From: Planctomycetota bacterium
GTDB taxonomy: Bacteria > Planctomycetota > J058 > JAJDCQ01
Reading direction: 5' to 3'
Length of the DNA stretch: 64,000 nt
NCBI GenBank assembly: GCA_029260755.1
Contig: JAJDCQ010000115.1
Location: 24,929-88,928 of the forward strand
Shown one piece after another: positions 2,466-62,900 of this stretch. Below the pieces are notes generated by a model, which was not told where the DNA came from, searched no databases, and worked only from the letters and a program-made list of their open reading frames with translations. The translations under genes were made by a program, and so were the position numbers. The number at the start of each line of letters is the position of its first letter. Position 1 is the first letter of the stretch.

Positions 2466-3005
2466 CTAGTTCTCGGCTCGCCGCGGCGAGAACAGGGTCA
2501 GGGTGATCGTCGCCTTGCGCCAGAGGCGGTCGTCCTTCGGGTCCCGCGTCGCGACCACGTCCTTCACCTTCAGCCCGGGCCACTCGTTCTGGCAGTCGAA
2601 CAGGAAGTCGGTGAGCTGCTTCATGTCGATGTCGTCGATGCTCACCTGGAACGACGCCTCGTTGAACGCGCCGACCGGGCGGGGGCGTTGCGGCTGGAAG
2701 TTCTTCAGGTCGAGCCCGCGCTTGTTCAGGAGCGAGATGATGAAGCTCTGGAGCTGGGCGACCTTCTTCGGATCCTTCCGGGCCTTCCGCTCGAGGAGGA
2801 TCCACTCGCGCAGCTGCTCGTCCTTCTCCGCGAACTGCTTCATGTTCTCGAGGTTCGAGACCTCGCGCTTCAGCTTCCCCTGCTGCTCGCTGTAGCGTGT
2901 CCAGAGGAGCACGCCGAAGCAGGCGACGATCGTCGTCAACACGACCATCATCATGATGAAGAAGCGGAGGAGGTCGAATCCCTGTCCCGGGGGGCGCGCG
3001 CTCAC
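2466..3005 (-). CDS. GspM/PilO-like inner-membrane assembly protein of a T2SS/T4P-like machine
   Basis: 179 aa with a short cytoplasmic N-terminus, one TM helix (FFIMMMVVLTTIVACFGVLLW) and a coiled-coil/periplasmic domain. It is the last gene after the gspK- and gspL-like genes and overlaps the upstream gene by 4 nt. Confidence 0.45.
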   Translation of the reverse strand: MSARPPGQGFDLLRFFIMMMVVLTTIVACFGVLLWTRYSEQQGKLKREVSNLENMKQFAEKDEQLREWILLERKARKDPKKVAQLQSFIISLLNKRGLDLKNFQPQRPRPVGAFNEASFQVSIDDIDMKQLTDFLFDCQNEWPGLKVKDVVATRDPKDDRLWRKATITLTLFSPRRAEN

Positions 3006-5309: not shown

Positions 5310-6413
5310 TCACTCCGGGATCTCTCGCCACGCGATCACCTCCATCGCGTCGCCGTGGCGGCGGATCGTCGCCGCCGCGCGCTTGAAGACGACCGGGCTG
5401 CGCGCCTCGATCGACACCCGGAAGTGGTAGCTGGTGACCGAGAGAACCTTGTCGAGCGAGACCGTCGCCTCCTCGCCCTCGCCCGAGCCGCTGCCGCTCC
5501 CGCCCTCGCCGCCGCCCTGGCCGCCGCCTTCGCTCGGCTCGAAGAGCTGCTTGAGCTGCGGGATGCTCGAGGCGAGCTCGGAGACCTCGGCGAACTCGTT
5601 TCCGTCGGGGAGCTCGCCCGGCTCCTCGCCCGGCTTGGCCGGCTCGGGATCGCCCCGGAACTGGACGATCGCCTCGACGGCCGCGTCGCGGTCGATCGGC
5701 TTGTCGTCCTTGTCCTTCTCCGGGAGGATCGCGAAGAGGACCTCCGCGGAGGCCGTGTTGATGTTGATCTTCCCGGCCGAGAGGATCGTCAGGAAGTCGA
5801 GCAGCCCGGGGATCCGCTCGCCCGTCTCCTCATCGAACCTCCCGTGGAGCGTCTCCGGCTCGATCTCGGGGATCTGCTCGAGCTCGCTGATGTCGAGGAG
5901 GCGCCGATTGAGCGCGCCCTCCTCGTAGTCGCCCTCCTCGTCGGGGTCGACGAAGTCGATCAGGCGCTCGGCGACGTTCTCCTCCTCGGTCTCGATCTTG
6001 GTCGCCAGCGCCGTGAGGAACGTCTTGATCAGCTCGGCCTTCTTCTCGTCGTGAAGGAGGTTGACGTCGATCCGGCGCTCGGTGTCCACCAGGCTCACGA
6101 TCACCGGGATGTCGCCGACCGTGGCGTCGGTCTCGAACGCGGTCTCGGCGCGCGCCCAGTCCTCACGGATGCTGTCGACCTCGGTCTGGCTCTGATCGTC
6201 GCGGAGGACCGCCTTCGCCCACGCGACTCCGCCGAGCGCCGCGTAGTAGGCGCGGTCGTCGGCGAGGAAGTTGCCGACGAGGCGCTCCTCGATCTTCGCG
6301 GAGTAGGTGAACTGGATCACCAGGACGATCAGGACCGACAGGACGAGGAGCGAGAGGACCAGCGCGACGCCGCGGTCACCGGTTCGCCGGGAGGCTCGAG
6401 TGGGGTGCTGCAT
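5310..6413 (-). CDS. gspK: Type II secretion minor pseudopilin GspK-like protein
   Basis: N-terminal hydrophobic segment RGVALVLSLLVLSVLIVLVIQF is typical of GspK, and a helix-hairpin-helix ININTASAEVL is present. The listed ORF extends to 6503; I placed the start at the Met of MQHPTRASRRTGDRGVALV, which is uncertain. Confidence 0.55.
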   Translation of the reverse strand: MQHPTRASRRTGDRGVALVLSLLVLSVLIVLVIQFTYSAKIEERLVGNFLADDRAYYAALGGVAWAKAVLRDDQSQTEVDSIREDWARAETAFETDATVGDIPVIVSLVDTERRIDVNLLHDEKKAELIKTFLTALATKIETEEENVAERLIDFVDPDEEGDYEEGALNRRLLDISELEQIPEIEPETLHGRFDEETGERIPGLLDFLTILSAGKININTASAEVLFAILPEKDKDDKPIDRDAAVEAIVQFRGDPEPAKPGEEPGELPDGNEFAEVSELASSIPQLKQLFEPSEGGGQGGGEGGSGSGSGEGEEATVSLDKVLSVTSYHFRVSIEARSPVVFKRAAATIRRHGDAMEVIAWREIPE

Positions 6414-15380: not shown

Positions 15381-15495
15381 TCTCGTTCGCGCCTTTCTTT
15401 CACGACTGACTGACTCACCGCCGCGGCGGTCGTCCCATCCGGGCCGACCGCCGCGCGCGTGTACGGCGGCGACTTGGCACTGACCGAAGGCAGTC

Positions 15496-15581
15496 CGCGC
15501 AATCCGTGAAATCCGCGGTTTCGTTCTCCCGTCACGAGCCGGGTGGAACCACGGATTTCGCGGATGACGCGGATTGCGAGC
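15496..15581. repeat. Palindromic intergenic repeat element, copy 2 (diverged)
   Basis: gcgcAATCCGTGAAATCCGCGG, then a core, then CCACGGATTTCGCGGATGACGCGGATTGCGAG. It has the same architecture as the copy at 1402. Confidence 0.6.
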
Positions 15582-15800
15582 TGCAGGCTCCAAGTCCATT
15601 GCCGACGATCCGCCGGTCTCGACTCGCAAATCCGTGGGATCCATGCATCCGTCGATCGAAACCGATCGAAGGGGCGCGCCTCGATCGCCCCCGCCCCGCG
15701 GCTTGCCCGCGTCTCTCTCTCAGTGTTAGATGCCGCCCTGCCCGCGAGCCCACCGTAGGTTCCGAAGCCGACCGACCCGACCGATCTCCGGAGGCATCCG

Positions 15801-32062: not shown

Positions 32063-32440
32063 CCCGGATAGGGGCCATCGGGCTCGCCTTCGGCGAGCAG
32101 ATGGCACCACGGAGGCACGGAGACACGGAGAAGCGACTGCGTGCGCCGTATCCCGGCTCGGACCGAGCCGACCGGCTCCAGGGATGGCTGGCTCCCTCTC
32201 GGTCTCGGTCGCGCGAGGCGACGGGAACCAAGAGAAGGAGGAAGGAGCGGCGGGGTCCGTGCGCGACGTGGCGTCATCCGAAGCTGCTCCGTGCCTCCGT
32301 GCCTCCGTGGTTCCATCTCTCATCGACCTGAGGACGAGCCGAGTGCGCGCGGGGCGTCCGGTTATCCGACGAACCTCGATGCAACCCCCGTCATCGCCAC
32401 CAGTTGACATCGACCCAGCCAAAACCCCACAACCCCAGAC

Positions 32441-32635: not shown

Positions 32636-34081
32636 ATGGTCCAGCGCATCGTCATCCCCGTCCCGGGGGTCTCGGGACGGTCTCGGGGAGTCCCTGCCCA
32701 GTCCGGCAGCCATACTCGCTTTGATACTCACATCTTGGAGAGCTTCGACGAGGAGCTCCTCGGCGCCATCCCCGGCCGCATGGGCGCGGTCGACGATGAC
32801 CCCGAGCAGCTGCTCCGCACCGAGTTCTTCGACGCCGACCGCATGCGAGGCCACCTCGAGCGGTTCGAGGAGCTCCTCGGGGCCGAGAGCCACCTCGCGG
32901 CGCTTCGCTTCGACCCGATCCGGGTCGCCCAGATCTGCGAGCGCGAGAGCCTCCCGCCGGTCGGAGCCGGAGCCGGCGACGACGCGGCCCGGCGGAAGCT
33001 CTTCGAGAAGCTCTGCTGCCCGGTGACCCTGCGCAAGGCCAAGCGGACGATCGAGCACGCCTACCGCGAGAGCGCCCGCCGGCTCGAGCGCGCGACCCGC
33101 GCCGCCATCCGCAAGGCTGCCAAGAACAGCCGCAACCCCGGACGCCGTTGCCGCGGCCGGCCGCCCGCCGAGCTGCCGAAGGGCGCGCGCTGGGCCGATC
33201 CCGCCGAGGCGCGCAAGGATCTCCTCGCGGTGACCGCCGCCCTGATCCACCTGACGGCCCACCGGAGCCTCGGCCTTCCGCCGGAGCAGAACCCGCTCTT
33301 CGCGACCGTGCTCGAGGTGAGCTGCCGCGAGGCCGCCAAGGCGGCCAGCAAGTCGTGCGGCGTGGCGAGCCGGACCGAGAGCGCCGTCGTCGTCTTCGAC
33401 GGCACCCGCGCCGACCGGGACCCCGAGGTCGTCGCCGACAAGCTCGAATCGACCGACGACGAGGTCGACGACCTGGTCACCCGCCTCGGCGGCGACCCGG
33501 CCCGCGTCCTCGCCCCGGCGATCGCGGCCATGGTCCGCAACGTCCTCCGGCCGACCCTGTCGCTCGACCACCTCCTCGCGCTGGTCGTCGGCGATCAGGC
33601 GACCCGCGGCAAGCGCCAGCGCGACGCCGCCCGCGACGACGACGACGCCGCGCGGCGGGCGCTCGACGCCGCCTTCCGCCGGGACGAGGCGCGCGCCCGC
33701 CGCCGGGGCGACGCCCGCCGGCTCGAGGCCGCCCGCCTGGCCCGCGCCGCCCTCGCGGCGCTCACGCCGGCGGAGAACGCCTTCTTCATCGCCGCCCGGC
33801 GGGCCGCCCTGCGCGACCTCCGGGCGAGCGCGGCGCTCGGCAACGCGCCGGCCGAGGTCGCGCGGGTGCTGACCGACCCGACCGACCCGCACGCCCAGCT
33901 CGGCTTCGCCGCGAGCCTGCGTCAGCTCGGCGCCGTCGAGCGCGCGAGCCGGGTCGAGCGGTTCGTCGAGCGGGTCTTCGGCGTCGCGCCCGCGCCGACG
34001 GCCGCCTGCCCGTCCGGAAAGTTCAACGCCGGCGCGGTCGGGCATCCCTCGGGTCGCTTCGACGCGGCCGCGAGCGCGTAG
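32636..34081 (+). CDS. Hypothetical protein
   Basis: 481 aa. Composition and codon bias favour the + strand over the overlapping 1083-aa Arg-rich antisense ORF. No recognisable domain. Confidence 0.4.
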   Translation: MVQRIVIPVPGVSGRSRGVPAQSGSHTRFDTHILESFDEELLGAIPGRMGAVDDDPEQLLRTEFFDADRMRGHLERFEELLGAESHLAALRFDPIRVAQICERESLPPVGAGAGDDAARRKLFEKLCCPVTLRKAKRTIEHAYRESARRLERATRAAIRKAAKNSRNPGRRCRGRPPAELPKGARWADPAEARKDLLAVTAALIHLTAHRSLGLPPEQNPLFATVLEVSCREAAKAASKSCGVASRTESAVVVFDGTRADRDPEVVADKLESTDDEVDDLVTRLGGDPARVLAPAIAAMVRNVLRPTLSLDHLLALVVGDQATRGKRQRDAARDDDDAARRALDAAFRRDEARARRRGDARRLEAARLARAALAALTPAENAFFIAARRAALRDLRASAALGNAPAEVARVLTDPTDPHAQLGFAASLRQLGAVERASRVERFVERVFGVAPAPTAACPSGKFNAGAVGHPSGRFDAAASA

Positions 34082-34201
34082 AAACCGATACGGATGGAGT
34101 CAGTGGCGCCGAGGGTGCCCGGGGCCGGCCCGGGCGCTCGCGGTGCCGCGGCGTGTACGGGTTGGTCGGTGACCGCCGCGCGACGGGGCCGCCGACTGGT
34201 G

Positions 34202-34757
34202 GGCGAAGCGATTGCCGACGGACGGGGGCCTCGGGCCTGCGCCCTGCTTCGGATGTCGCGGATTGGCCGAGCCGTCGCCTCCCGTTCGGAGCTCTTCTGG
34301 GCAGCCAGCGCGGGGGTCAGAGCGCCGGTTGCCGCTCGCTCGAAACGGGGTTGCCGCAGCAGGCCCCCCTCCCGAGCGGCAACCGGACGACACTGACCCC
34401 CACCCCAATGCCGGCCCGCGGAGAGTCGCCCGAACCCGGTCTCCGCTGGTGCGGACTCGCGAACCCACGCCCTGGATCGCGCCGACGGCCCCGGGCCCCG
34501 CTTCGGGTTCGCGAACCCACCACTTGGATCGAGCGGAGGGCCCCGGGCCCCGCATTGGGGGTCAGTGTCGTCTTCCTGCTGTCTTGGGAGGAGAGCACGC
34601 TCCGGCAACCCCGCTCCGACCAAGCAGCAGGAAGCGCTCTGACCCCCGCGCTGGCTGCCCCGGAACGTTCCGAACGGGAAACCGCGGCTCGGCCCGCCCG
34701 CCCGCTCCGAAGCAGGCCGCCCGCCCGCGGCCCTCGCCCGTCGGCAATCGCTTCGCC
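34202..34757. repeat. ~560-bp non-coding imperfect palindrome with two internal ~45-bp tandem repeats
   Basis: The left end GGCGAAGCGATTGCCGACGG pairs with the right end CCGTCGGCAATCGCTTCGCC. Internal arms (ggggtcagagcgc...ggggttgccg...acgacactgaccccc) are reverse complements of each other. The centre carries tandem cgcgaacccac..ggccccgggccccgc units (~34457-34501 and ~34510-34553). Mirrored ORFs on both strands confirm the symmetry. Confidence 0.6.
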
Positions 34758-34822
34758 TGAGGTTCGGCATTGGCCTCGCACGGGGCGACGCGCGGTTGAC
34801 CCCGTTTGGTAGGGTGACCGCC

Positions 34823-35617
34823 ATGACCGAGAGCCCTGAGGCGGCCAACCAATCCGCAGCCCCCCCGACTCCGCCCCCCCTGGTCGTCGCCTCCGGGCTC
34901 CGCCGCGACTACCAGGTCGGACAGTCCACCGTCCACGCCCTCGCGGGGATCGACGTCACCATCGCCGCGAGCGAAGCAGTCGCCATCGTCGGCCGGAGCG
35001 GCAGCGGGAAGTCGACCCTGCTGAACGTGCTCGGCGGCCTCGAGCGGCCGAGCGCCGGGTCGATCACGGTCGCGGGGCACGACCTCGGCTGCCTCTCGCG
35101 GGACGAGCTCGCGGTCTACCGGCTGCGCACGGTGGGGTTCGTGTTCCAGTCGTTCCACCTGGTGCCGCACCTGTCGGTGCTCGAGAACGTGGCGTTGCCA
35201 ATGATGATCGCCGGCGTCGGCTGGCTCGCCCGACGGCGGCGGGCCAAGGAGCTGCTCGAGCGGACCGGGCTGAGCGAACGGATGCGGCATCGGCCGACCG
35301 AGCTCTCCGGCGGCGAGCGCCAGCGAGTCGCCGTCGCCCGCGCCCTCGCGAACGAGCCGAAGCTGCTCCTCGCCGATGAGCCGACGGGCAACCTCGACAC
35401 GAAGACGGCCGGCGAGATCATGGGCCTGATCCGCGAGGAGCGGACCCGGGCCGGGGCGGCGCTCGTCCTGGTCACCCACGAGCGCGACGTCGCCCACGAG
35501 AACGCCGAGCGGATGATCGAGCTTCAGGACGGCGCCGTGCTCTCGGATCGACCGACCGCCCCCTCCGGCGAGGTCGCCGAACAAGCAGACGCGGCGGGCG
35601 CGGAGGAGGCGGCGTGA
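34823..35617 (+). CDS. ABC transporter ATP-binding protein (LolD/MacB/FtsE-like)
   Basis: Walker A GRSGSGKSTLLN, signature LSGGERQRVAVARAL, Walker B LLLADEPTGNLD. Confidence 0.8.
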   Translation: MTESPEAANQSAAPPTPPPLVVASGLRRDYQVGQSTVHALAGIDVTIAASEAVAIVGRSGSGKSTLLNVLGGLERPSAGSITVAGHDLGCLSRDELAVYRLRTVGFVFQSFHLVPHLSVLENVALPMMIAGVGWLARRRRAKELLERTGLSERMRHRPTELSGGERQRVAVARALANEPKLLLADEPTGNLDTKTAGEIMGLIREERTRAGAALVLVTHERDVAHENAERMIELQDGAVLSDRPTAPSGEVAEQADAAGAEEAA

Positions 35618-36942
35618 AGCGCATCGACCTGATCCGCCTCACCCTCTCGAACCTCCGCCGCCAGAAGCTCCGCACCGCCCTGACGGTGACCGGCGTGATC
35701 GTCGGCACCGCCGCCGTGACGACGATGGTCAGCATCGGGATCGGCGTGAAGCGAAGCCTGATCGCCCCGCTCGAGCAGGCGGAGCTCCTCACCAGCCTGA
35801 CGGTGCAGCCGGTGAAGCTCGACCTCGGCTCGTTCAGCTTCTCCGATCTCGGGCGCGGCGGGATGCAAAAGCTCCGCGAGCGAAAGTCGATCACCGACGA
35901 GACGATCGCCGAGATCGCGGCCATCGAGCACGTCCGGGTCGTCTACCCCGACAAGAACGTGCCGCTCTCGCTCGAGGTCGAGGGCGGGAAGATCTCGGTC
36001 GTCGGGATCGACGTCATCCCGGACGCGGCCATCACCGAGGGCATGCGCGAGGCGATCCTCGCCGGCGGGTACTGGGATCAGACCGGCCGAGGCGGGGCCG
36101 TCCTGCCGAGCAGCCGGCTCGAGGACCTCGGCGTGGCGAGCCCCGAGGAGGCCGTCGGCCGAGACGCGATCTTCCGATCGCCCGGAGCGTTCTACGAGAC
36201 GAAGCCCGGCGCGGAGGTCTCCGAGAACCGGCGCCGCGTCACCGTCCCCATCATTGGCGTCTACGAGAGCCAGGCGCTCGGCCTGGCCGGCACCCGCGTC
36301 CTGCTCCCGCCCGGGGTCGGCGACGACGCCGCCGAGCTCGCCGGCCCGATCGGCAAGATGACCTTCGGCGGCCCCGTGAAGGACGGCGAGTACCGAGCCC
36401 TCTCGGTGAAGGTGACCGACTTCGAGCACCTCGACGAGGTCCGCGCCGCGATCGACGACAAGGGCTACGGCACGATGACGGCCGGCGACCTCATCGGCGT
36501 CATCGACACCGTGTTCATCGGCATCGAGGCGGCCCTCGGCCTGATCGGAAGCGTCGGTCTGATCGTCGCCTTCTTCGGCATCGCGAACACGATGGTGATG
36601 GCGGTGCTGGAGCGAACGAGAGAGATCGGAACGCTCAAGGCGCTCGGAGCCCGCGACCGCGACGTTCGCCGCCTCTTCGTGATGGAGGCGGCCACGATCG
36701 GGTTCCTCGGGGGCCTCCTCGGCGTCGGAGTCTCGAAGCTCCTCGGAGCGCTCGGCGACCTGATCGCCAACGCCTTCTTCGCCCGGGGCGAGAACCAGAC
36801 CCCGCTCGACCTCTTCCAGATCTCGACCCCGCTGGCCCTGGGAGCGGTCGCGTTCGCGGTGGTGACGGCCGTGATCGCGGGAGCCTACCCGGCGTGGCGA
36901 GCGTCGCGGCTGGACCCGGTGGTGGCGCTGCGCCATGAGTAG
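35614..36942 (+). CDS. FtsX-like ABC transporter permease (MacB/LolCE family)
   Basis: N-terminal TM helix, a large periplasmic domain and a C-terminal FtsX 3-TM domain (…GIANTMVMAVLERTREIGTLKALGA…). The ATGA overlap with the ATPase gene indicates translational coupling. Confidence 0.8.
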   Translation: MKRIDLIRLTLSNLRRQKLRTALTVTGVIVGTAAVTTMVSIGIGVKRSLIAPLEQAELLTSLTVQPVKLDLGSFSFSDLGRGGMQKLRERKSITDETIAEIAAIEHVRVVYPDKNVPLSLEVEGGKISVVGIDVIPDAAITEGMREAILAGGYWDQTGRGGAVLPSSRLEDLGVASPEEAVGRDAIFRSPGAFYETKPGAEVSENRRRVTVPIIGVYESQALGLAGTRVLLPPGVGDDAAELAGPIGKMTFGGPVKDGEYRALSVKVTDFEHLDEVRAAIDDKGYGTMTAGDLIGVIDTVFIGIEAALGLIGSVGLIVAFFGIANTMVMAVLERTREIGTLKALGARDRDVRRLFVMEAATIGFLGGLLGVGVSKLLGALGDLIANAFFARGENQTPLDLFQISTPLALGAVAFAVVTAVIAGAYPAWRASRLDPVVALRHE

Positions 36943-37099: not shown

Positions 37100-37196
37100 A
37101 ATCAATCCGAGCAATCCGCGAAATCCGCGGTTCGGTCTCTCTCGGCGTTGAGCCCAGTGGGAACCGCGGATTACGCGGATTACGCGGATTGCGAGT
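37100..37196. repeat. Palindromic intergenic repeat element, copy 3
   Basis: atcAATCCGAGCAATCCGCGAAATCCGCGG, then the core ttcggtctctctcggcgttgagcccagtgggaa, then CCGCGGATTACGCGGATTACGCGGATTGCGAG. Confidence 0.7.
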
Positions 37197-37332
37197 TGCC
37201 GGGTCCGGATTCATTGCCGTTGCGCGGGCCGTTCCAAAGGGCCGAAGGGGTCAGGTCTCGGATCTTCGCATCAAGGCCACCGTTGCAAGGATCCGAGACC
37301 TGGCGCGTGGGCTCTTTCGGCGCCGCCAACGA

Positions 37333-51617: not shown

Positions 51618-51698
51618 CGTCGACGCGCGCTTTCATTGCTGACGACGTCGCGCGCTTGATGACCCCATCGCCGTGTGAGAACCCGAACCCTGGCGACT

Positions 51699-51789
51699 CG
51701 TAATCCGCGTAATCCGCGTAATCCGCGGTTCCCACTGGTTCAACGCCGAGAGAGACCGAACCGCGGATTTCACGGATTGCACGGATTGA
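51699..51789. repeat. Palindromic intergenic repeat element, copy 4 (inverted orientation)
   Basis: cgTAATCCGCGTAATCCGCGTAATCCGCGG, then the core in reverse-complement orientation relative to copies 1 and 3, then CCGCGGATTTCACGGATTGCACGGATTG. Confidence 0.7.
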
Positions 51790-51890
51790 TTGTTCCTGGA
51801 ACGGACGTAGGCGTCGGCGACGAGCGCAATGCGAAACGGGCCCGATCGTGTCGGGCCCGTCGCGCATCTCGATCGACGTGGGCCGACGCG

Positions 51891-52849: not shown

Positions 52850-55495
52850 CTAGTCGAGATCTCGCGCCTTGCGGAGGAGGACGTTGAGCTCGCCCTGCCC
52901 CTCGGACTCGAGACCGACCCTCTGGATGAGCGCCGTGCGCTGGTCCTCGCTCGGCTCGCCGGCCACGCCGGCGTTCGCGAACGTGAGATCGACCAGCCGT
53001 CCGACGAGCTCGCCGTAGACGCCGTAGGCACCGTCGAGGACGGCGCGCTCCTCGTCGGTCAGCGGAACCGACTCGGGCCACTCGATCGGCGGGGGCGGCT
53101 CGATGAAGGCGGCCTCGCCCATCTCGAAGGGATCATCGGGCTCCGCCCGCGGCGCCTCGAGCGGGGCGAACCCGGGCGGCAGCTCCGAGGTCGGCTCGGC
53201 GCGCGGTGCGAAGCCCGGCGCGAGCTCCTCCTCGGCGGCCGGAGCCGCCCGGGCTTCGAGCGGAACCGGGGCTCCGAAGGGCGAAGGCGCCGACGGGGCC
53301 ACCGGCGGCGCCTCGGCGGCCGGCGGCTCGAGCGGCGCGGGCGCGCCGAAGGGCGAGGGCTCCGACGGCGCGACGGGCGGCGCCTCGGCCGCGGGGGCCT
53401 CGGGCGGCGGGGCGCTCGCCGCGCCGACCGGACCGGCATCGAACGCGAACTCGCCGAGCTGCGGCTCGAGCGCGCCGGTCTCCGGTGCGGACTCGGGAGC
53501 CGGCTCTGCGGCGGGCATGTCCGCCTGGAAGTTCCCCACCCGCGACGGCGTCAAGTCCGCCGGAAGGATCGGCTCGGCGATGTCGTAGCCGAAGGGGCTC
53601 GGCGCGGCCGGGGCGACGCCGGGGGGCGGCGGCGCGCCGGGAGCGCCCACGGCGGGCGCCGCCGGACCGCCGAGCTCGAGCGGCACGTCGAGGTTGAAAT
53701 CTCCGTCGAAGCCGCCGCCGAGGTCGCCGAGGTCGAGCCCCTCGAGCCCGAAGCCATCGCCGCCTGCGGGCGCGCCGGCCGGCGCCCCGAACGGCGGCGC
53801 TCCTCCCGGCGGAGGCCCGAAGCCCTGCGGCGGCGCTCCGAAGGGATCCGGGGCCGGCGCGCCGTAGGGATCGGCAGGCGGTGCGCCGTGAGGATCCGCC
53901 GGCGGGGCGGCGTAGGGAGCGCCGGGCGGAGCAGCGCCGTAGGGATCGGGCGGCGCCCCGAAGGGGTCGGCCGGGAGTCCGTACGGATCCGCCGGAGGAG
54001 GAGCGCCGTGCGGAGGAGCGCCATACGGATCAGCCGGCGGCGCGCCGTACGGATCCCCGTAGGGGTTCGGCGGAGCGCCATACGGATCCGCCGGCGGGGC
54101 GCCATACGCGTGCGCGGGGGGCGCGCCGTACGGGTCGGCCGGCGCCCCGTAAGGATTCGGCGGAGCTCCGTACGGGTCCGCCGGCGGCGCTCCGTACGGA
54201 TCCGCGGCCGGCGGCGCACCGAACGGAGAGGGCGCGGGAGGGGGCGAAGGGAACGGCGCCGCTCCGAAGCCTCCGAAGTCGCCCGGGGACGACGCGGGGC
54301 TGGCGAAGTCTCCCGGCGAGCTGGTCGGAGGAGGCGCGAAGCCGCCCGCCCCGAATCCCGGCGGGCCCGCCGGCGGGCCCGCGGCGGCGAACCCCGGCGG
54401 CGCGGCCGGCGCGAAGCCGGGCGGGGCGGATCCTGCCGAGGGCGGGAATCCAGCGCCGGGCGCCGGCTCGCTCGGTTTGCCTCGCTCCTCGAGGAGCTCG
54501 GCCGGAAGGGGCGCCTCGATCGACTGCTGCATGTAGAGCTGCGCGAGCTTGGCGTCGCTGGTGAACGGATCCTCGTCCGAGACGGCCTCGGGCGGGGCGC
54601 TGAACGAGGGGCCCGGTCCTCCGCCCGCGGGCGGGAACGCGCTGGGGTTGGCCGGGAAGCCGCCCGACGATGGATCGAACGGGAGCGGCTGGGCCATCGG
54701 CGCCTGCGCGAACGGATTGCCGGCCGCGTTCGGATCGGCCGGAAACGCGGCCGCGGCCTGATCGAGCGGGTTCACGCCCGGCGCCGGCGAGAGCGGAAAG
54801 CCGCCGCCCGGATCCGGCGCGTACTGACCGGCGGGCGCGTCGAACGGCATCGCCCCGAAGTCGGCGGGACCGCCGCCCGGAGCGCCGGGGGCGCCGGGAG
54901 GAAATGGAGCACCGAACCCGGGTGAGGCCGGGTAGCCGGGAGCGGGGGGCGGGGCGCCGTAGGCGCCGGGCGGCGGCGGCGCCGGCACCGTCGCGAACGG
55001 ATCCTGATCCGCTCCGGGCGCGGGACCGGGAACGGTCTGGAACGGGTCGTTCGCGCCCGGACCGGGGGCGAAGGGATCGCCCGAGGCGAACGGATCGCCG
55101 GCGGCGAACGGCGCACCGGGCGGGGGAGCCGGGGGGATCGGCGGCGCGACCGGACCGGCGAGGTGACTCATCACGTCGTCGAGGGCGCGCGTCGCGTCGG
55201 GAACCGCGGCGGGCCGGACGAAGCCCTGCGGCCATCCGACCTGGGGACCTTCGCCGAGGAGACCCTTCGGAAACGGGTCGCCGGGTCGGAGGCTCGCCAT
55301 CTCCCGGCCGAGCGACTCGAGGCTCGCGCTGTCGCCTCGGGCGCGCGCGATCTGTGCCTCGACGTAGAGCGCGCCGAAGAGCTCCTCGGTCTTTCCGCGC
55401 TGACGACACGCATCGGCGACCTGATGCGCCTTCTCGAAGAGCCCGTCGATTCCTTCAGCGGTCGGATCGATGATCTCGAGGAGCCCGAGGGTCAT
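52850..55495 (-). CDS. Proline/glycine-rich protein with >20 tandem DPYGAPP(A) repeats between a structured N-terminal and a structured C-terminal domain
   Basis: ~880 aa. N-terminal ~120 aa (MTLGLLEIIDPTAEGIDGLFEKAHQVADACRQRG…). A central P/G/A/D/Y low-complexity region with (A)DPYGAPP(N/A) repeats is encoded by 24-nt tandem units at ~53820-54220. The ordered C-terminal domain is …RAVLDGAYGVYGELVGRLVDLTFANAG…. Confidence 0.55.
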   Translation of the reverse strand: MTLGLLEIIDPTAEGIDGLFEKAHQVADACRQRGKTEELFGALYVEAQIARARGDSASLESLGREMASLRPGDPFPKGLLGEGPQVGWPQGFVRPAAVPDATRALDDVMSHLAGPVAPPIPPAPPPGAPFAAGDPFASGDPFAPGPGANDPFQTVPGPAPGADQDPFATVPAPPPPGAYGAPPPAPGYPASPGFGAPFPPGAPGAPGGGPADFGAMPFDAPAGQYAPDPGGGFPLSPAPGVNPLDQAAAAFPADPNAAGNPFAQAPMAQPLPFDPSSGGFPANPSAFPPAGGGPGPSFSAPPEAVSDEDPFTSDAKLAQLYMQQSIEAPLPAELLEERGKPSEPAPGAGFPPSAGSAPPGFAPAAPPGFAAAGPPAGPPGFGAGGFAPPPTSSPGDFASPASSPGDFGGFGAAPFPSPPPAPSPFGAPPAADPYGAPPADPYGAPPNPYGAPADPYGAPPAHAYGAPPADPYGAPPNPYGDPYGAPPADPYGAPPHGAPPPADPYGLPADPFGAPPDPYGAAPPGAPYAAPPADPHGAPPADPYGAPAPDPFGAPPQGFGPPPGGAPPFGAPAGAPAGGDGFGLEGLDLGDLGGGFDGDFNLDVPLELGGPAAPAVGAPGAPPPPGVAPAAPSPFGYDIAEPILPADLTPSRVGNFQADMPAAEPAPESAPETGALEPQLGEFAFDAGPVGAASAPPPEAPAAEAPPVAPSEPSPFGAPAPLEPPAAEAPPVAPSAPSPFGAPVPLEARAAPAAEEELAPGFAPRAEPTSELPPGFAPLEAPRAEPDDPFEMGEAAFIEPPPPIEWPESVPLTDEERAVLDGAYGVYGELVGRLVDLTFANAGVAGEPSEDQRTALIQRVGLESEGQGELNVLLRKARDLD

Positions 55496-55615
55496 GCGGC
55501 CACCATCTCCGTCTCTGCGGGTTGTCCGAAAAAAGGGTCGTGACGAACCAGGTTCGAAGGCCAGCGTACCCGTCGTCGAGGGGGCTCGCAACCGACCCCG
55601 GAGGTGGGAAGACGC

Positions 55616-58465
55616 TCACCGGGAGGGGAGACGCCGGCGCACCTCGATCCGGCGAATCAGATAGCTCGTCCGCGGCCGCCCGCCCGACTCGGGCTCGATC
55701 CGGAGCCGGTTCTCGCCGGGCTCGACGAGGTCGGTCACATCGAATGCGTCGGCGCGGAACGCGCGGGTGAGCGGGGAGAGCTCGCGGACGACGACCTGAC
55801 CGTTGACGCGGAGGGTGATCGGGGCGTAGCCGATGTAGCGACGATCGCGCCAGACGTAGCGCCCGGTCGCGTGGGTGAGGACCAGGCTCACGCGTTCGGC
55901 GTCTTCCTCGACGGTGAAGGAGGCCTCGATCGCGTGGCCGGGCTCGACGAGGGCGCGCGAGCCGTCGGTCTGATTCGACCACGCTCCGTCGAGATCATCC
56001 TCGGACCGATCGATGTGGGTCGCGGCGAGGCGGGCGCCCGGGGCGGGCGTGACGTCGCGCGGGTCGCCGACCCGCCAGAACGTGAGGGCGCGGATCATCG
56101 TCGCGGGCGCCGGCCTCACCTCGAGGGAGATGCCGCGGAGCGACGCCCACTTGAACGCCCTGGTGAAGTCGTAGCCGTCGGGCACCCAGCTCTCGGTCGT
56201 CCGCGCGTAGGCGGCCTGGAGGGTGTAGAGACCGCCCGCCTCCGTCGAGCACCGGAGTCGAACGAGGAGATCCTGCCCGGCGAAGCCCGACCCCGTCGCA
56301 TCCCAGAGGGTCGCGCGGTCGCGCTGGCCGGGGCGCCCTCCCTGGAACGCGTCGGCGCGCTCGATGACCGAGCCGCCCTGCCGCACGGTCGTCTCGGCGC
56401 GCGCCCGATCCTCACCGGCGTCGAGGAGGAGGTCGACCATCGACCAGTCTCCGACGTCCCGGAGGACGAGCCCGACCTCGCCGGCGACGAAGCGGTCGCG
56501 CCAGGAAGGATCGAGGTCGGCGCGGAGGCCGATCCCCTCGCCGCGGACGACGCGCCACGCTCCGTCCTCGGGCGTCGGCGCGAGGGCCCAAGCGACGAGC
56601 GGATCGCCGGCATCGACGCGGAGAGCGCCGTGCCCCACGAGCGCGGCGAGCGCGGCGCCGACCGCGTCGATGACGGCCTCGACCCGACGGGCGAGCGGCT
56701 CGGAGACGACCGCGCTCCGATCCTCGAGACCGGCGCGGAGCCGGGTCGCCCGCTCCTCGAGGTCGCGCCCGCGCCGGAGCTGCCGCCGGAACGCCTCGTC
56801 GACCGCCCGGCCGTCGATCGTCACCGGGTCCGCGCCGAGGAGCGCTCCGATCAGTCTCCGCGCGTCGAGGGCGAGCTCGAGGAGCGCGACGGCGTCCTCG
56901 CCGAGCACGTTCGTCGTGCTCGTCCGCTCGAGGGCGCGGCGCGCCTCATCGGGGCGTCCCGTGACGCAGCTCTCGATCGCCCGGTCGACCTCGACCGCGA
57001 TCGCGAGGATCGGCGCGTGCTCCACGGCGCCGCGTTCGATCGCGAGCTCTCGGGCTCGGCGCCCGGCGTCGGCGTCGCCCGCGGCGGCGCGCTCCAGGGC
57101 CAGCCACGCGAGGAGGTCGCGCGCCAGGCCTGGCTCGCGACGGGCGAGGCGGGCGTCGAGCTCCTCGGGGCTCGAGGCGCCCAGCGCCGCGAGGGCGCGG
57201 CACCCCTCCGCGAGCCGGCCGCCGCCGGCCAGATCGGCGAGGCGCGTCCGGATGATCGCGAGCTCGTCGGTCTCGGGCGGCGTCGGGTCGATCGGCGCGG
57301 GGCTCACCCCGCTCGCCGGTTGCCGGACCGCGACGAACGCGACGGCGCCGACGACGCAGACGGCCGCGGAGACGGCGATCAGCAGGGCGACCGGGAGCCG
57401 CGCGCCGTCGCGCTCCGGCGTGCGTCTCGAGTCGAGGCGCGCGGACCCCGAGGGGGGCTCGCGTCGCGCGTCCGTCGAGTCGCCGCGCGGAGGCGCGGGC
57501 GCGAACCCAGGCGCGGGTGCGGCCGCGGGGGGCGGAGGCGGCGCGCTCCGGCGGGGCGGGGCGAGCAGGGTCGAGGGGTCCTCGGCGACGATCGCCCGCT
57601 CGATCGCGTCGGCGAGCGCGATGGCGGAGGGCGGTCGCTCCGAGGGGTCCTTGGCGAGGGCCCAGAGGCAGGCGGCGTCGAGAGCGTCGGCGACCCGGTC
57701 GCCGAGGTGCTCCCGCGCGCCCAGGTTCGAGCATCGGCTCGGCGGGTCGGGGACGTGGGTGATGATCGTCGCGATGAGGCGCGCGGCGCTCGCCCCCGCG
57801 AACGGGGAGGTGCCCGCGATGGCGTAGTAGAGCGTGGCGCCGAGGCCGTAGACGTCGCTCGCGACGGTCGCGACGCTGGCGCCGTCGATCTGCTCGGGGC
57901 CCATGTACTCGAGGGTGCCGATGGCCATTCCGGTCCGGGTGAGCTCCTCGACGACCGCGCGATCGACGACCTTCCCGAGGCCGAAGTCGAGGAGGCGGGC
58001 GCGACCGGCCTGATCGATGAGGACGTTCGCCGGCTTGAGGTCGCGGTGGAGGATGCCGTGGCCATGGGCGTGGTGGAGCGCGCGCGCGGCCGCGGCGACG
58101 GCGGCGGCGTGGGCGCGGACCGACGGCCCGCCGAGGCGCGGGACCCGGCTCTGGAGGGACTCGCCCGCGACGAGGTCCATGACGAGATAGAAGCGGCCGT
58201 CGCCGGTGGCGCCGACGTCGAGGACCGGGACGATGCCCGGGTCGTCGAGGCGAGCGAGGAGGAGCGCCTCGCGCCGGAGCCGGTCCTCGAGGGAGGGATC
58301 GGAGTTCCGGACGACCGTCTTGATGGCGTAGACGCGGCCGCTCGGCTCGTGGCGGGCGCGGTAGACGATCCCCATCCCGCCGCGGCCGAGGATGCCCTCG
58401 ATCACGTAGGCGCCGAGGCGCCCCCCGACCGTGTCGGCCCCGTCGTCGAGGTGAGTGTCGGACAA
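55616..58465 (-). CDS. Serine/threonine protein kinase with TM helix and large extracytoplasmic C-terminal domain
   Basis: Hanks kinase motifs GILGRGGMGIVYRA, AIK, HRDLKPANVLI, DFGLGK. One TM helix (LPVALLIAVSAAVCVVGAVAFVAV) and a ~550-aa C-terminal domain shared with the paralogue at 60021. Confidence 0.8.
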   Translation of the reverse strand: MSDTHLDDGADTVGGRLGAYVIEGILGRGGMGIVYRARHEPSGRVYAIKTVVRNSDPSLEDRLRREALLLARLDDPGIVPVLDVGATGDGRFYLVMDLVAGESLQSRVPRLGGPSVRAHAAAVAAAARALHHAHGHGILHRDLKPANVLIDQAGRARLLDFGLGKVVDRAVVEELTRTGMAIGTLEYMGPEQIDGASVATVASDVYGLGATLYYAIAGTSPFAGASAARLIATIITHVPDPPSRCSNLGAREHLGDRVADALDAACLWALAKDPSERPPSAIALADAIERAIVAEDPSTLLAPPRRSAPPPPPAAAPAPGFAPAPPRGDSTDARREPPSGSARLDSRRTPERDGARLPVALLIAVSAAVCVVGAVAFVAVRQPASGVSPAPIDPTPPETDELAIIRTRLADLAGGGRLAEGCRALAALGASSPEELDARLARREPGLARDLLAWLALERAAAGDADAGRRARELAIERGAVEHAPILAIAVEVDRAIESCVTGRPDEARRALERTSTTNVLGEDAVALLELALDARRLIGALLGADPVTIDGRAVDEAFRRQLRRGRDLEERATRLRAGLEDRSAVVSEPLARRVEAVIDAVGAALAALVGHGALRVDAGDPLVAWALAPTPEDGAWRVVRGEGIGLRADLDPSWRDRFVAGEVGLVLRDVGDWSMVDLLLDAGEDRARAETTVRQGGSVIERADAFQGGRPGQRDRATLWDATGSGFAGQDLLVRLRCSTEAGGLYTLQAAYARTTESWVPDGYDFTRAFKWASLRGISLEVRPAPATMIRALTFWRVGDPRDVTPAPGARLAATHIDRSEDDLDGAWSNQTDGSRALVEPGHAIEASFTVEEDAERVSLVLTHATGRYVWRDRRYIGYAPITLRVNGQVVVRELSPLTRAFRADAFDVTDLVEPGENRLRIEPESGGRPRTSYLIRRIEVRRRLPSR

Positions 58466-60020: not shown

Positions 60021-62900
60021 CTACCAGCGAATCTCGACGCCGTAGAACCAGTACCCGTGAGTGGCCTGGGCATCAGCGGCGACCTCGAGACGGAACGAGT
60101 TCGTCCCCGGGCGCACGAGGTCGGTGATCTCGAAGAAGCCCGAGCTCGTTCCGGCGTCTCCGTTCGGCGAGAACGTCGAGGCGACCTCGACGCCGTTCAC
60201 CGACGCCGTCACCGGGGCGTAGGAGGGCATCCGGCCGCCGAGCGCGGCGAGATGCTTGAGGACGAGACAGACCGGCCCCCGGCCCGGGGGCCCCTCGAAC
60301 TCGAACTCGATGAGCGTGCCTTCGGGACCGAAGGCGAGGGCGTTGTCGCGTGGCCAGGCGTGTGGGGCCAGCCGGACCGCGTCGCGGTCGATGCAGCCGG
60401 TGACCTTCAGCCCCGGCTTCGCGAAGGTGACGGCGCCGCCACCGCTCGACTCGCTCCCGAGGAACGCGTCGACGCCGGGCCAGGGATTCTTCGCCCGCCT
60501 CAAGACGATCTCACGAACGAGGGTCTTCGGCGCGGGGAGGACGCGAAGATCGCCCCGCTCCAGCTCGGGCCATGAGGCGACGGCGTAGAGCGCCTTCGGC
60601 GAAACGACGGCGACGCCGCGCTCGGGCCACGCCCGCGCAACGAGATCCTCGCCGGTCCCCCCCGGCGCCGGGTACCGCGACAGCTCCACCCGTCCGGCCG
60701 TGCCTCGCGGCGCGCTCGAGATCGGGGCGGCGCGCACGAGCACGCCGGCGCCGGCCGCCTCGATGAGCGCCCGGGGATGCTCACCCCCGGAGGACGCGAG
60801 CCGCACCTCGATGGCGACGAACCGCTCCGCGTTCGGCACGACGAGGTCGAGGCTTCCCGACTCGAGCGTGGGGCCGTCGGTCTCGGCGGCGAGGCCGATC
60901 CCGTCGTTCAGTCGCTGCCAGCGAGACGGATCGGCGCCGAACCCGGCGAGGATCAGCCCCGCGTCGTCGATCCCCGAGAGGCGCAGGTCGTGGCTGCCGT
61001 AGAAGCTCTTGGCGTGGCCAAGGACTCGTCGAGCGGCCCTCTCGACGCGCTCCCGGACCGGTCCCGGAGCCTCCGCGATGCCCTTCGTGACGCGGGCGGT
61101 GAGCGCCCGCGCAGCGGTCAGGAGCGTCACCGGATCCTCGGCCAGACGATACACGTCAGCCCCGGCGATCGACCCGGCATCGATGACTCCCACCGGCGGC
61201 GCCTCGCCGCTGATCGTCGCGACGATCAGACCGCGGCCGGCCACGAGAGCGGCGAACGCGTCGTGGACGTCGCTCCCGATCACATCGGTGAGGGACGGCT
61301 CTCCGAGCGCGTCGGCTGCTCGCCTGGGATCGCCGCGCGTCGCCTCGTCGATGAGCGTCAGGTAGGCATTCGCGAGACCGACGATGAGGCTGGCGCGGCC
61401 TTCGGCGCCCGCCGTCGCGGCCGCGACGCGGCCCCCCTCGAGGTCGCCGGCGACGGCGCGCTCCAGCGCGAGCCACGCGAGCAGCGCTCCGCGCATCTTG
61501 GCGGGGCGCTTGCTGCGCGCGTCGATGAGCCGGTCGATTTCGGCGACATCCCGGACGTCGAGGGCGCGGATCGCGTCGAGGCCGGCGGCGAAGTCCCTCT
61601 GCGTGAGCGCCTCCTCGACGGCGTCGTGGGCGCGGTCGGCAGCGTCCGGCGGGGGGGGCCCCGGATCGGGCGGGTCGGGCCGATCGGGTGGGCCGGTCCC
61701 GGCGCCCGAACCGGCGGCGCCCGAGCCTCCGGCGATGTCGGGGCCCGGGTCGGGCGGCTCGCCGCCGCCGCCGATGGCGAGGAGCCCCACCGCAACCAAG
61801 AGGAGCGCGCCGACTCCGATCGCGATGAAGAGGGCCGAGTTCGACTGCTCGGGAAGACGGACCGTCGTCTCGCGCCCGTCGGCGGTCCGGACGACGCGAA
61901 CCCTGCCCGACGATGAGCTCGTCCGAGAGATCTTGCCCGAGCCTCTGCTCACTCGCCGGCGTCCCGTGGTCCGGGTCGCCCGGCGGGCCTCGGCGATCGC
62001 TCGCTCGATCGCGTCGGCGAACGCGGCGGCCGTCTCGTGGCGGTCGTTGGGCTCCTTCGCGAGCGAGGTGAGGCAGACCTCGTCCAGGCGCGCGGCCAGG
62101 CGGTTCGCCTCGCCCCGGTGCTTGCGGATCTCGGAGGGCGGATCGGGCTCGCGGTTGAGGATCCCCGAGATGATGTTCGCCGCGCTCGCGCCCTGAAACG
62201 GCGGCCGCCCCGCGATCACCTCGTAGAGGGACGCCGCGAGCCCGTAGATGTCGGCCGCGCCGGTCAGCTCGCTCGACTCGCCGAGCTGCTCGGGCGCCAT
62301 GTAGGCGAAGGTCCCGATCACCATCCCGGCCGCGGTGAGCGCGTGTCGGTTGGAGTCGGGGTCGCCCGGGGACGTCTCCGAGATCGCCTTCGCGAGGCCG
62401 AAGTCGAGGATCTTCGGCGGCCCCGAGGTCGGAACGAGGATGTTCGCCGGCTTGATGTCGCGATGGAGCACGCCGAGGCCGTGGGCGTGGTTGATCGCCC
62501 GGGCGACCTCGGCGATGAGCCGCGCCCCCGCCGCCACCTCCAGATCACCGCTTCGAGCGAGCGTCTTGAGGTCCTCGCCCTCGACCAGCTCCATGGCGAT
62601 GAACGGCCGTCCATCCGCCATGCGCCCGGTGTCGATGAGCTCGACGACGCTCGGGTGATCGAGCCGGGAGATGACGTTCGCCTCGCGCCGGAGGCGCTTC
62701 TCGAGGCCGGGGTCGCCGGCCTGGAGCAGCATCTTGATCGCCACGCCCTCGTTCGTCCGGGTGTGCCGACCCTGATAGACGACGCCCATCCCGCCGCGGC
62801 CGAGGACGCCCTCGACCGCCCAGGGACCGATCATGGTCCCGGGGGGGAGCTCGTCGCCGCTGCCACTGCTGCTGCCGGTCTTGCGCGTGTCGCCGTGCAT
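60021..62900 (-). CDS. Serine/threonine protein kinase with TM helix and large extracytoplasmic C-terminal domain (paralogue of 55616..58465)
   Basis: GVLGRGGMGVVYQG, AIK, HRDIKPANILV, DFGLAK. TM helix ALFIAIGVGALLLVAVGLLAI. The C-terminal domain shares LLAWLALERAxAGD and a terminal …YAP(I/V)T…VNG…DVTDLV(E/R)PG(E/T)N… region with the other kinase. Confidence 0.8.
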   Translation of the reverse strand: MHGDTRKTGSSSGSGDELPPGTMIGPWAVEGVLGRGGMGVVYQGRHTRTNEGVAIKMLLQAGDPGLEKRLRREANVISRLDHPSVVELIDTGRMADGRPFIAMELVEGEDLKTLARSGDLEVAAGARLIAEVARAINHAHGLGVLHRDIKPANILVPTSGPPKILDFGLAKAISETSPGDPDSNRHALTAAGMVIGTFAYMAPEQLGESSELTGAADIYGLAASLYEVIAGRPPFQGASAANIISGILNREPDPPSEIRKHRGEANRLAARLDEVCLTSLAKEPNDRHETAAAFADAIERAIAEARRATRTTGRRRVSRGSGKISRTSSSSGRVRVVRTADGRETTVRLPEQSNSALFIAIGVGALLLVAVGLLAIGGGGEPPDPGPDIAGGSGAAGSGAGTGPPDRPDPPDPGPPPPDAADRAHDAVEEALTQRDFAAGLDAIRALDVRDVAEIDRLIDARSKRPAKMRGALLAWLALERAVAGDLEGGRVAAATAGAEGRASLIVGLANAYLTLIDEATRGDPRRAADALGEPSLTDVIGSDVHDAFAALVAGRGLIVATISGEAPPVGVIDAGSIAGADVYRLAEDPVTLLTAARALTARVTKGIAEAPGPVRERVERAARRVLGHAKSFYGSHDLRLSGIDDAGLILAGFGADPSRWQRLNDGIGLAAETDGPTLESGSLDLVVPNAERFVAIEVRLASSGGEHPRALIEAAGAGVLVRAAPISSAPRGTAGRVELSRYPAPGGTGEDLVARAWPERGVAVVSPKALYAVASWPELERGDLRVLPAPKTLVREIVLRRAKNPWPGVDAFLGSESSGGGAVTFAKPGLKVTGCIDRDAVRLAPHAWPRDNALAFGPEGTLIEFEFEGPPGRGPVCLVLKHLAALGGRMPSYAPVTASVNGVEVASTFSPNGDAGTSSGFFEITDLVRPGTNSFRLEVAADAQATHGYWFYGVEIRW

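Follow-up and report, generated by a model that had tools for sequence, protein, structure and literature searches.

Whole-length palindromic miniature inverted-repeat transposable elements (MITEs) are exemplified by the Correia, ERIC/IRU and Rickettsia RPE elements, and the attC sites of integrons, which lie beside gene cassettes and the integrase IntI, are 57 to 141 nt long and carry the R'' and R' cores RYYYAAC and GTTRRRY. Here we analyze an imperfect nested palindrome of about 580 bp, at 34191 to 34768 of a 64-kb window (the whole stretch of DNA studied, 64,000 nt of contig JAJDCQ010000115.1 in assembly GCA_029260755.1), which lies between two operons in the GC-rich genome of a planctomycete and invites comparison with both groups as well as with repetitive extragenic palindromic (REP) sequences. 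REP units of the GTAG/CGTC-tagged type are 20 to 40 nt long, with a stem of 8 to 9 bp or slightly more and a loop of 4 to 5 nt, and REP dimers consist of inverted units with different stems that fold into larger hairpins, mostly downstream of genes (Di Nocera et al. 2013, PMC3733652).

According to our comparison, the planctomycete element shares with REP hetero-dimers and bacterial interspersed mosaic elements (BIMEs) the presence of two inverted hairpin units with different stems, their folding into a larger joint hairpin, a non-coding nature and a position downstream of a gene, as the units stand tail to tail and the palindrome begins 110 nt past the stop codon at 34081. It differs from them in its unit of about 260 nt with a 14-bp stem and a 33-nt loop, against the 20 to 40 nt, 8 to 9 bp and 4 to 5 nt of REPs, and in that no other copy was found in the window or in the sequence collections searched and no REP-associated tyrosine transposase (RAYT) in the 64-kb window. 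On one strand, the tetramer CGTC stands immediately before the inner stem of each unit (GTGTCGTC), which at a length of four nucleotides may be due to chance; other features of the CGTC family, namely, A/T in the first stem positions and a CCA tail, are inconsistently present, and membership in the CGTC-REP family was rejected on size and on copy number, the latter as counted in the 64-kb window and the collections searched.

With the whole-length palindromic MITEs, the element has in common terminal inverted repeats (20 nt, perfect), the lack of coding capacity, the capacity to form a long hairpin, and an intergenic location that is empty at the orthologous site of a relative. Unlike them, it shows in the window and the collections searched neither a target-site duplication nor a second copy nor a parent insertion sequence (IS) with matching ends, and its arms display compensated side hairpins and not simple decay. 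The side hairpins in turn resemble attC sites in topology (a conserved foot stem, an unpaired spacer, a variable paired stem, and a variable terminal structure), but the RYYYAAC/GTTRRRY cores are missing, the 64-kb window holds no integron integrase and no cassettes, and there are just two such sites, inverted and embedded in a larger palindrome. Quasipalindromes likewise have imperfect inverted-repeat arms that mutation makes complementary again, which yields compensation without selection; they represent, however, a mutational mechanism and not a family, and those studied measure tens of nucleotides and are not nested over 580 bp (PMC7202029).

As for the other systems considered, the element resembles intrinsic (rho-independent) terminators in being a GC-rich hairpin downstream of a gene, but it has no U-tract, it is twenty-fold larger, and a separate, compact hairpin of conventional size is already present at 34107 to 34145. 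This agrees with an earlier note, made from the letters of this DNA, according to which the structure was not a simple terminator. Invertons, which are invertible promoter switches, combine inverted repeats around a segment with a neighboring invertase and with the occurrence of both orientations in a population; of these features, the inverted repeats are present here, and no recombinase gene is found in the window. For retron non-coding RNAs, IS110 bridge RNAs, and TnpB-IscB omega RNAs, we found in the window no reverse transcriptase, DEDD recombinase, or RuvC nuclease gene, respectively. The element is a variant of a known feature class, that of intergenic hairpin-forming repeats, and is not categorically new.

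Anatomy of the palindrome

The termini are formed by the 20-mer GGCGAAGCGATTGCCGACGG at 34202 to 34221 and its exact reverse complement CCGTCGGCAATCGCTTCGCC at 34738 to 34757, which have no further occurrence within the window even when 2 mismatches are allowed. From these ends, the arms at 34202 to 34376 and 34583 to 34757 extend over 175 nt each and are 79% complementary without a single indel, in agreement with the claim of the earlier note that the ends and the internal arms are reverse complements of each other. Pairing reaches outward to about 34191 and 34768 (GCCGA/TCGGC beyond a 6-nt bubble) and inward, at lower identity, to about 34469 and 34505. The palindrome is by far the largest inverted repeat of the 64 kb, the runner-up having arms of 49 nt. 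When the left half is aligned to the reverse complement of the right half, two copies of a unit of about 260 nt emerge, arranged tail to tail, and the following features can be distinguished.

34191 to 34768, no strand: the whole imperfect nested palindrome, with outermost GCCGA/TCGGC, a 6-nt bubble, and then the 20-nt perfect termini
34202 to 34469, + strand: left unit, about 268 nt, in which conserved blocks alternate with variable blocks
34312 to 34401, no strand: left side hairpin, with an outer stem at 34312-34320/34393-34401 and an inner 14-bp stem at 34325-34338/34373-34386
34452 to 34503 and 34504 to 34555, + strand: two tandem direct repeats of 52 nt, 83% identical
34505 to 34518, no strand: perfect 14-nt palindrome GGGTTCGCGAACCC, at the meeting point of the two units
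34505 to 34757, - strand: right unit, about 253 nt, an inverted and diverged copy of the left unit
34557 to 34647, no strand: right side hairpin, with an outer stem at 34557-34565/34639-34647 and an inner stem at 34573-34587/34620-34633

The conserved blocks of the left unit are B1 (GGCGAAGCGATTGCCGACGG), CCTGCTTCGGA, GGCCGAGCCG, TCCCGTTCGGA, the 27-mer GGGCAGCCAGCGCGGGGGTCAGAGCGC, CGGGGTTGCCG, and GACGACACTGACCCCCA, with lengths of 20, 11, 10, 11, 27, 11, and 17 nt, and the unit ends with CTCGCGAACCC. The two units agree at 79% of the ungapped 175 nt, where stretches of 27, 20, and 11 nt are free of differences, and the mismatches between the arms are moderately clustered (P of about 0.01 to 0.03 by permutation).

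Each unit contains a side hairpin of about 90 nt, which consists of a 9-bp foot stem, a 14-bp inner stem, and an apical region of 33 to 34 nt. In the left hairpin, the outer stem GGGGGTCAG/CTGACCCCC is followed by an asymmetric internal loop and the apical region measures 34 nt; the right hairpin has the same outer stem, while its inner stem is of another sequence and includes one bulged base. Both apical regions keep CGGGGTTGCCG and CCTCC.

The center carries the two direct repeats noticed earlier, which are real and present in two copies but extend over 52 nt instead of the approximately 45 bp first given. They break the symmetry of the center, where the second copy is the true mirror partner of the inner end of the left unit, and they bring along an imperfect second copy of the 14-nt palindrome (GGACTCGCGAACCC at 34456 to 34469). 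Tandem Repeats Finder (TRF) does not score them, since there are only two diverged copies. At 17%, the repeats have diverged about as far as the arms, so that the structure as a whole must be old.

Folding of the element yields -426 kcal/mol for the + strand RNA (z = -18.6 against dinucleotide shuffles), -464 kcal/mol for the - strand RNA (z = -20.8), and -245 kcal/mol for single-stranded DNA (ssDNA; z = -16.5), values that no shuffle matched in any of the three cases. The global fold is a four-way junction, since pairing between the arms takes in all parts but the inner stems.

Compensated pairing in the side hairpins

Six of the 14 pairs of the inner stem differ between the two units, and all six are changed on both sides, with no pair broken; four of the six are contiguous. 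The small hairpin of the outer arms is compensated as well (CTCC/GGAG in one version, TTCC/GGAA in the other). In a neutral simulation at 21% divergence, not one of 10,827 stems with at least 6 changes kept every pair, which indicates that something maintains the local pairing. The mismatches of the arms that are compatible with G.U pairing number 7 on the + strand and 13 on the - strand, a difference that is not significant, and the two RNA strands fold about equally well; inference of a transcribed strand from these mismatches was discarded for lack of significance.

Copies and orthologous loci

In the window and all fetched related loci, blastn, an nhmmer profile, and the covariance model R1 retrieve only the two units themselves. 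A search of 185,579 species-representative genomes with both hairpin blocks returned no copy; the source genome is itself outside this collection, since the pattern would have matched both of its units. The lone match (L005) falls inside conservon-type coding genes of an Actinomycetota metagenome-assembled genome (MAG) and is attributed to chance, as is a match within a coding region (L008) in the 21-mer scan of the Joint Genome Institute (JGI) metagenomes, which gave no copy either. Four scans of the viral collection IMG/VR produced seed-length matches only, which fall within coding regions and are likewise put down to chance, and blastn found no match in plasmids and phages. At gathering score, Rfam 15 has no match in the window; its permissive mode returned sub-threshold microRNA-type hairpins and RT-19 (15.5 bits against a threshold of 78.3 bits). 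Copies in related genomes, which the earlier note had proposed to look for, are therefore absent from the related loci and from the genome-representative, metagenome, viral, plasmid, and phage collections, an outcome that it had named as counting against its proposals and that applies to the collections searched, among which the source genome beyond the window is not included.

The same note had suggested a check for a target-site duplication. No direct repeat abuts the termini, and the top similarity between the flanks, GGTGACCGCC at 34168 and 34813, is equalled by 25% of random window segments and was rejected as a target-site duplication for lack of significance. None of the conserved blocks is found again in the rest of the window, and a shared protein-binding motif is not supported, the density of CGGA being only about twice the background.

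Among the related loci, L006 (60% identity in the permease) is syntenic downstream of the palindrome, where it contains the ATP-binding cassette (ABC) ATPase, the permease, a CsgG-like gene, and the gene that follows. On the upstream side, L006 has an unrelated gene and an intergenic region of only 98 nt, against 741 nt here, which shows no similarity. The position of the palindrome is therefore exactly that of a synteny breakpoint, and the nearest relative available lacks it. It is also absent from L007, which contains another permease homologue, and from L003 and L004, which contain homologues of the 481-aa protein encoded upstream of the palindrome. Since L003 and L004 share their upstream neighbors with each other, the gene of the 481-aa protein is not a mobile partner of the palindrome. 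A mobile unit made of gene plus hairpins, of the REPtron or IS200-like type, was discarded on the basis of this shared synteny and of a protein without nuclease or transposase signature.

In L006, a gene for a Ser/Thr kinase with a cyclic nucleotide monophosphate (cNMP)-binding domain (2485 to 4023) is inserted between the permease and the CsgG-like gene, and the window is without it, so that the surroundings of the ABC operon have seen two local rearrangements.

Origin and maintenance of the element

Given the observed anatomy, non-coding nature, compensated stems, and absence from the syntenic relative, we favor, with middling confidence, a REP-dimer- or MITE-like hairpin element or a fold-back duplication whose pairing has been kept by template switching at the DNA level. 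The element would be a composite non-coding DNA palindrome made of two inverted, diverged units of about 260 nt that meet tail to tail at the GGGTTCGCGAACCC core. It most likely originated as a hairpin-forming repeat, comparable to a very large REP hetero-dimer/BIME or to a whole-length palindromic MITE, or else may be an inverted duplication that formed by fold-back (template switch) where a rearrangement had its junction. The arms would later have decayed to 79% identity, and the central 52-nt duplication would represent a slippage event. Template switching within a strand, or gene conversion, has probably preserved the pairing of the side hairpins and of the arm blocks, possibly with the aid of weak selection for the hairpin; the correction of quasipalindromes by template switching has been characterized in E. 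coli (PMC7202029). A + strand read-through transcript, or ssDNA during replication, would be expected to fold into the four-way hairpin of about 580 nt, which would form a barrier between the operons against 3' exonucleases and against read-through by polymerase and, in a read-through transcript, would insulate the ABC operon from the upstream gene, although this effect is likely incidental.

Template switching would explain the compensated stems, since most of the changed pairs are adjacent and few events are needed. A process at the DNA level would likewise account for the tract-like identical blocks, the central slippage duplication, and the lack of a G.U strand bias, as well as for the absence of homologues and of partner enzymes.

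Several points speak against this interpretation. No second copy was detected in the window, the related loci, the 185,579 genomes, the JGI metagenomes, IMG/VR, the plasmids, or the phages; there is no significant target-site duplication; the 64 kb contain no gene for a transposase, RAYT, integrase, or reverse transcriptase; and the unit is about ten times the length of a REP. Furthermore, palindromes of such length are expected to be unstable (PMC7999016, PMC4787754), and the fact that this one has persisted until its arms diverged by 21%, while their 175 nt stayed free of indels, hints at selection. The barrier role may also be redundant, as the upstream gene has its own terminator-like hairpin. 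The hairpin-forming mobile-element remnant considered in the earlier note is nevertheless the suggestion that fits best, because the element has no counterpart in the syntenic relative, occupies a synteny breakpoint, and is accompanied by other intergenic palindromes; the copies, the target-site duplication, and the transposase that a mobile element might have left were not found in the window or, as regards copies, in the collections searched. A recombination hotspot, also suggested there, is compatible with the synteny breakpoint.

If our interpretation is correct, the element is an unusually large and nested case among the intergenic repeats that form hairpins and by which bacterial genomes are shaped. 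In addition, it would represent a long quasipalindrome found in nature whose pairing has been preserved through 21% divergence, and would thus bear on how bacteria tolerate and maintain long palindromes. On the practical side, it breaks short-read assemblies, gives rise to long spurious open reading frames (ORFs) in six frames, and marks a synteny breakpoint.

Alternative explanations

An unlikely but serious alternative is that the element is a selected cis-acting RNA, transcribed from the + strand either by read-through from the upstream gene or within a long leader that precedes the ABC operon, in which the four-way hairpin would have a function between the cistrons; RNase III could then process the perfect duplexes of 27, 20, and 17 bp, or the whole could be a stability or insulator element that uncouples the operons. 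The compensated stems, the absence of indels from the 175-nt arms together with the clustered conservation, the extreme stability of the fold, and the position between two same-strand units, 65 nt ahead of the ABC start codon, are all in line with such a role. However, the orthologous ABC operon of L006 has an upstream region of 98 nt without similarity, no Rfam family matches, the G.U-compatible mismatches do not favor the + strand, no promoter-like or terminator-like site was found by the consensus scan, and compensation is also a product of template switching in DNA (PMC7202029). The large structured non-coding RNA proposed in the earlier note finds no backing in these results, and the covariation analysis that it recommended met with no homologue beyond the two internal copies. 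If the pairing were selected after all, a new large cis-acting structure would be added to the RNA elements of Planctomycetota, of which, to our knowledge, very few have been characterized.

Two convergent small-RNA genes, the left one on the + strand and the right one on the - strand, form an improbable variant of this idea. Each would produce a structured RNA of about 260 nt in which a conserved scaffold is joined to a unit-specific 14-bp stem, and the palindrome would be a by-product of the tail-to-tail arrangement. Each unit does combine conserved blocks with a variable but paired stem, and several one-sided apical changes remain G.U-pairable in the required orientation. Against this, promoter and terminator signals were not found, the first (5') 110 nt or so of the units are unstructured on their own (z of about +1.1 and -0.6), folding is equally good in the opposite orientation, the searched collections contain no homologue, and the convergent transcripts would be almost fully complementary to one another.

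We consider it still more doubtful that the element is a DNA site for an unlinked recombinase or DNA-structure-binding protein, either as an invertible segment with the arms as its borders or as attC-like folded hairpins. The topology of the side hairpins, the perfect inverted blocks of 20 to 27 bp that could support inversion, and the location at a synteny breakpoint would suit such a site, but genes for an integrase, invertase, or transposase are absent from the 64 kb, the foot stem consists of GGGGGTCAG/CTGACCCCC and not of the attC cores, and there are only two hairpins in inverted orientation and no cassette array.

A further reading, in our view a long shot, regards the units as copies of an undescribed structured module, made of RNA or folded ssDNA, in which a fixed scaffold would carry a re-programmable 14-bp stem to be read by an unlinked protein, on the analogy of the specificity carried by attC sites and guide-RNA scaffolds. 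The scaffold would comprise the G5TCAG foot stem, the asymmetric internal loop, and the CGGGGTTGCCG...CCTCC apical region. The compensated stems would, in this improbable case, reflect selected differences in specificity and not templated repair.

There is very little chance that the palindrome is an assembly artefact, produced either by a chimeric fold-back or by a repeat through which contigs were wrongly joined. The two outer arms match at 100% identity two contigs assembled independently in Logan (L001 and L002; read set SRR15505512), but these contigs end at 34328 and 34627, symmetrically inside the two side hairpins, and the interior from 34329 to 34626 is supported by the source assembly only. 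Artefactual fold-backs, on the other hand, are perfect palindromes at contig ends, whereas the element is internal, is 79% identical between its arms, has an asymmetric center, and is flanked by unique genes on both sides; the symmetric break points, moreover, fit a drop in coverage within a GC-rich hairpin. Breaks of this kind, suggestive of such a drop, may serve as a practical flag for similar elements in fragmented assemblies.

All six frames are nearly open across the element, with 0 to 2 stops each, as is expected at 73% GC. The GC content by codon position is 0.73/0.73/0.73 in every frame, compared with 0.69 to 0.78, 0.46 to 0.55, and 0.92 to 0.95 (about 0.75/0.50/0.94) in the three neighboring genes. 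Gene-like periodicity is also absent from 90-nt sub-windows, in which the highest difference between GC3 and GC2 is only 0.30, and there is no small-ORF signal. No ORF overlapping the element matches Pfam, and a concatenated six-frame query against 5.8 billion proteins retrieved no similar protein. The earlier note had called the region non-coding and its mirrored ORFs on both strands junk, and both statements are borne out by these data. A protein-coding gene, whether disrupted and left as a remnant or merely unannotated, to which the long open frames on both strands might point, is accordingly a negligible prospect and was discarded on the flat codon-position GC, the small-ORF scan, and the Pfam and protein searches; nor was an intact homologous gene that aligns in frame found in a closer relative.

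Other palindromes in the window and in a relative

The same 64 kb contain five other strong palindromes, which belong to two other families and which, like the element studied here, lie 37 to 158 nt downstream of a stop codon.

1397 to 1499, 15492 to 15604, 37100 to 37203, and 51689 to 51791: four copies of a palindrome of about 100 nt (the AATCCGCG family), with three tandem 9-mers per arm
32099 to 32318: CACGGAG palindrome, with 36-nt arms of CACGGAG 8-mer repeats, 92% complementary, and a 148-nt spacer

The arms of the AATCCGCG family consist of the tandem 9-mers AATCCGCGT/ACGCGGATT around a center of about 27 nt and fold at -50 to -92 kcal/mol. The members are located 55 to 158 nt past a stop codon each, and together they look like a lineage-specific REP/MITE-like family. 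The CACGGAG palindrome is found 37 nt past a HEAT-repeat gene and upstream of the gene for the 481-aa protein, which is thus bracketed by two different palindromes. In L004, the orthologue of this gene ends inside a palindrome of about 300 bp (5711 to 6016) with ACGG-rich repeat arms (60-nt arms, 83% complementary, and 40-nt arms, 85% complementary), whose sequence is unrelated to that of the element. Taken together, the palindromes of the window and that of the relative indicate that large hairpin-forming intergenic repeats are normal in this lineage.

The element studied here is the largest and most complex of the palindromes seen in the lineage. It shares with the families of the window the genome, the position downstream of stop codons, the strong hairpins, and an enrichment in CGGA/TCCG, but those palindromes measure about 100 to 220 bp and have arms of three tandem 8- to 9-nt repeats, with four copies of the AATCCGCG family, whereas the element is 580 bp long, is built from complex units that bear side hairpins, and occurs only once in the window.

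A segment of the left arm (34250 to 34265, CGGATGTCGCGGATTG) is identical at 15 of 16 positions to an arm segment of the AATCCGCG family (15561 to 15576 and 37112 to 37127), a similarity that may reflect a common motif or mere chance. In the outer arms, the density of CGGA/TCCG motifs is about double that of the whole window.

Genomic context

The palindrome occupies part of a 741-nt gap that separates two transcription units of the + strand, with the following neighbors.

32636 to 34081, + strand: 481-aa conserved protein of unknown function (P0001), the upstream gene
34107 to 34145, + strand: compact GC-rich terminator-like hairpin, outside the palindrome, 26 nt past the P0001 stop codon (dG of -32.9 kcal/mol, no U-tract)
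34823 to 36942, + strand: operon of the ABC ATPase (34823 to 35617) and a MacB/FtsX-type permease (35614 to 36942)

P0001 could be assigned to no family in Pfam (above threshold), NCBIfam, PADLOC, or PHROGs, and only two homologues (P0002 and P0003) were found among 5.8 billion proteins. Its strongly conserved motifs include NSRNPGRRCRGRPPA and MVRxVLRPTLSLDHLL. The compact hairpin that follows the gene is plausibly a terminator in its own right. On the other side, the ATG of the ABC ATPase lies 65 nt past the right terminus of the palindrome. The promoter and terminator consensus scan from 33800 to 35100 detected no sigma-70-like promoter and no U-tract terminator.

The window represents an ordinary chromosomal core, with genes for ClpS, cytochrome bc, FAA hydrolase, kinases, and similar proteins, and its credible ORFs include no transposase, RAYT, integrase, invertase, recombinase, or reverse transcriptase. 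A replication landmark was discarded, as GC skew does not switch at the element. The nearest homologues of the permease are 60% identical, and those with a named source come from planctomycete MAGs; by its sequence, the host looks like a member of a poorly sampled Planctomycetota lineage.

Two repetitive regions were noticed farther along the window. An ORF of 913 aa on the - strand (52850 to 55591), without a Pfam match, is densely filled at 53244 to 54202 with tandem repeats, whose periods are 24 and 72 nt, and probably encodes a repetitive low-complexity protein. Two paralogous Ser/Thr protein kinases of about 950 aa are encoded on the - strand at 55616 to 58465 and 60021 to 62900, about 4.4 kb apart, and their genes share DNA segments of 78 to 84% identity.

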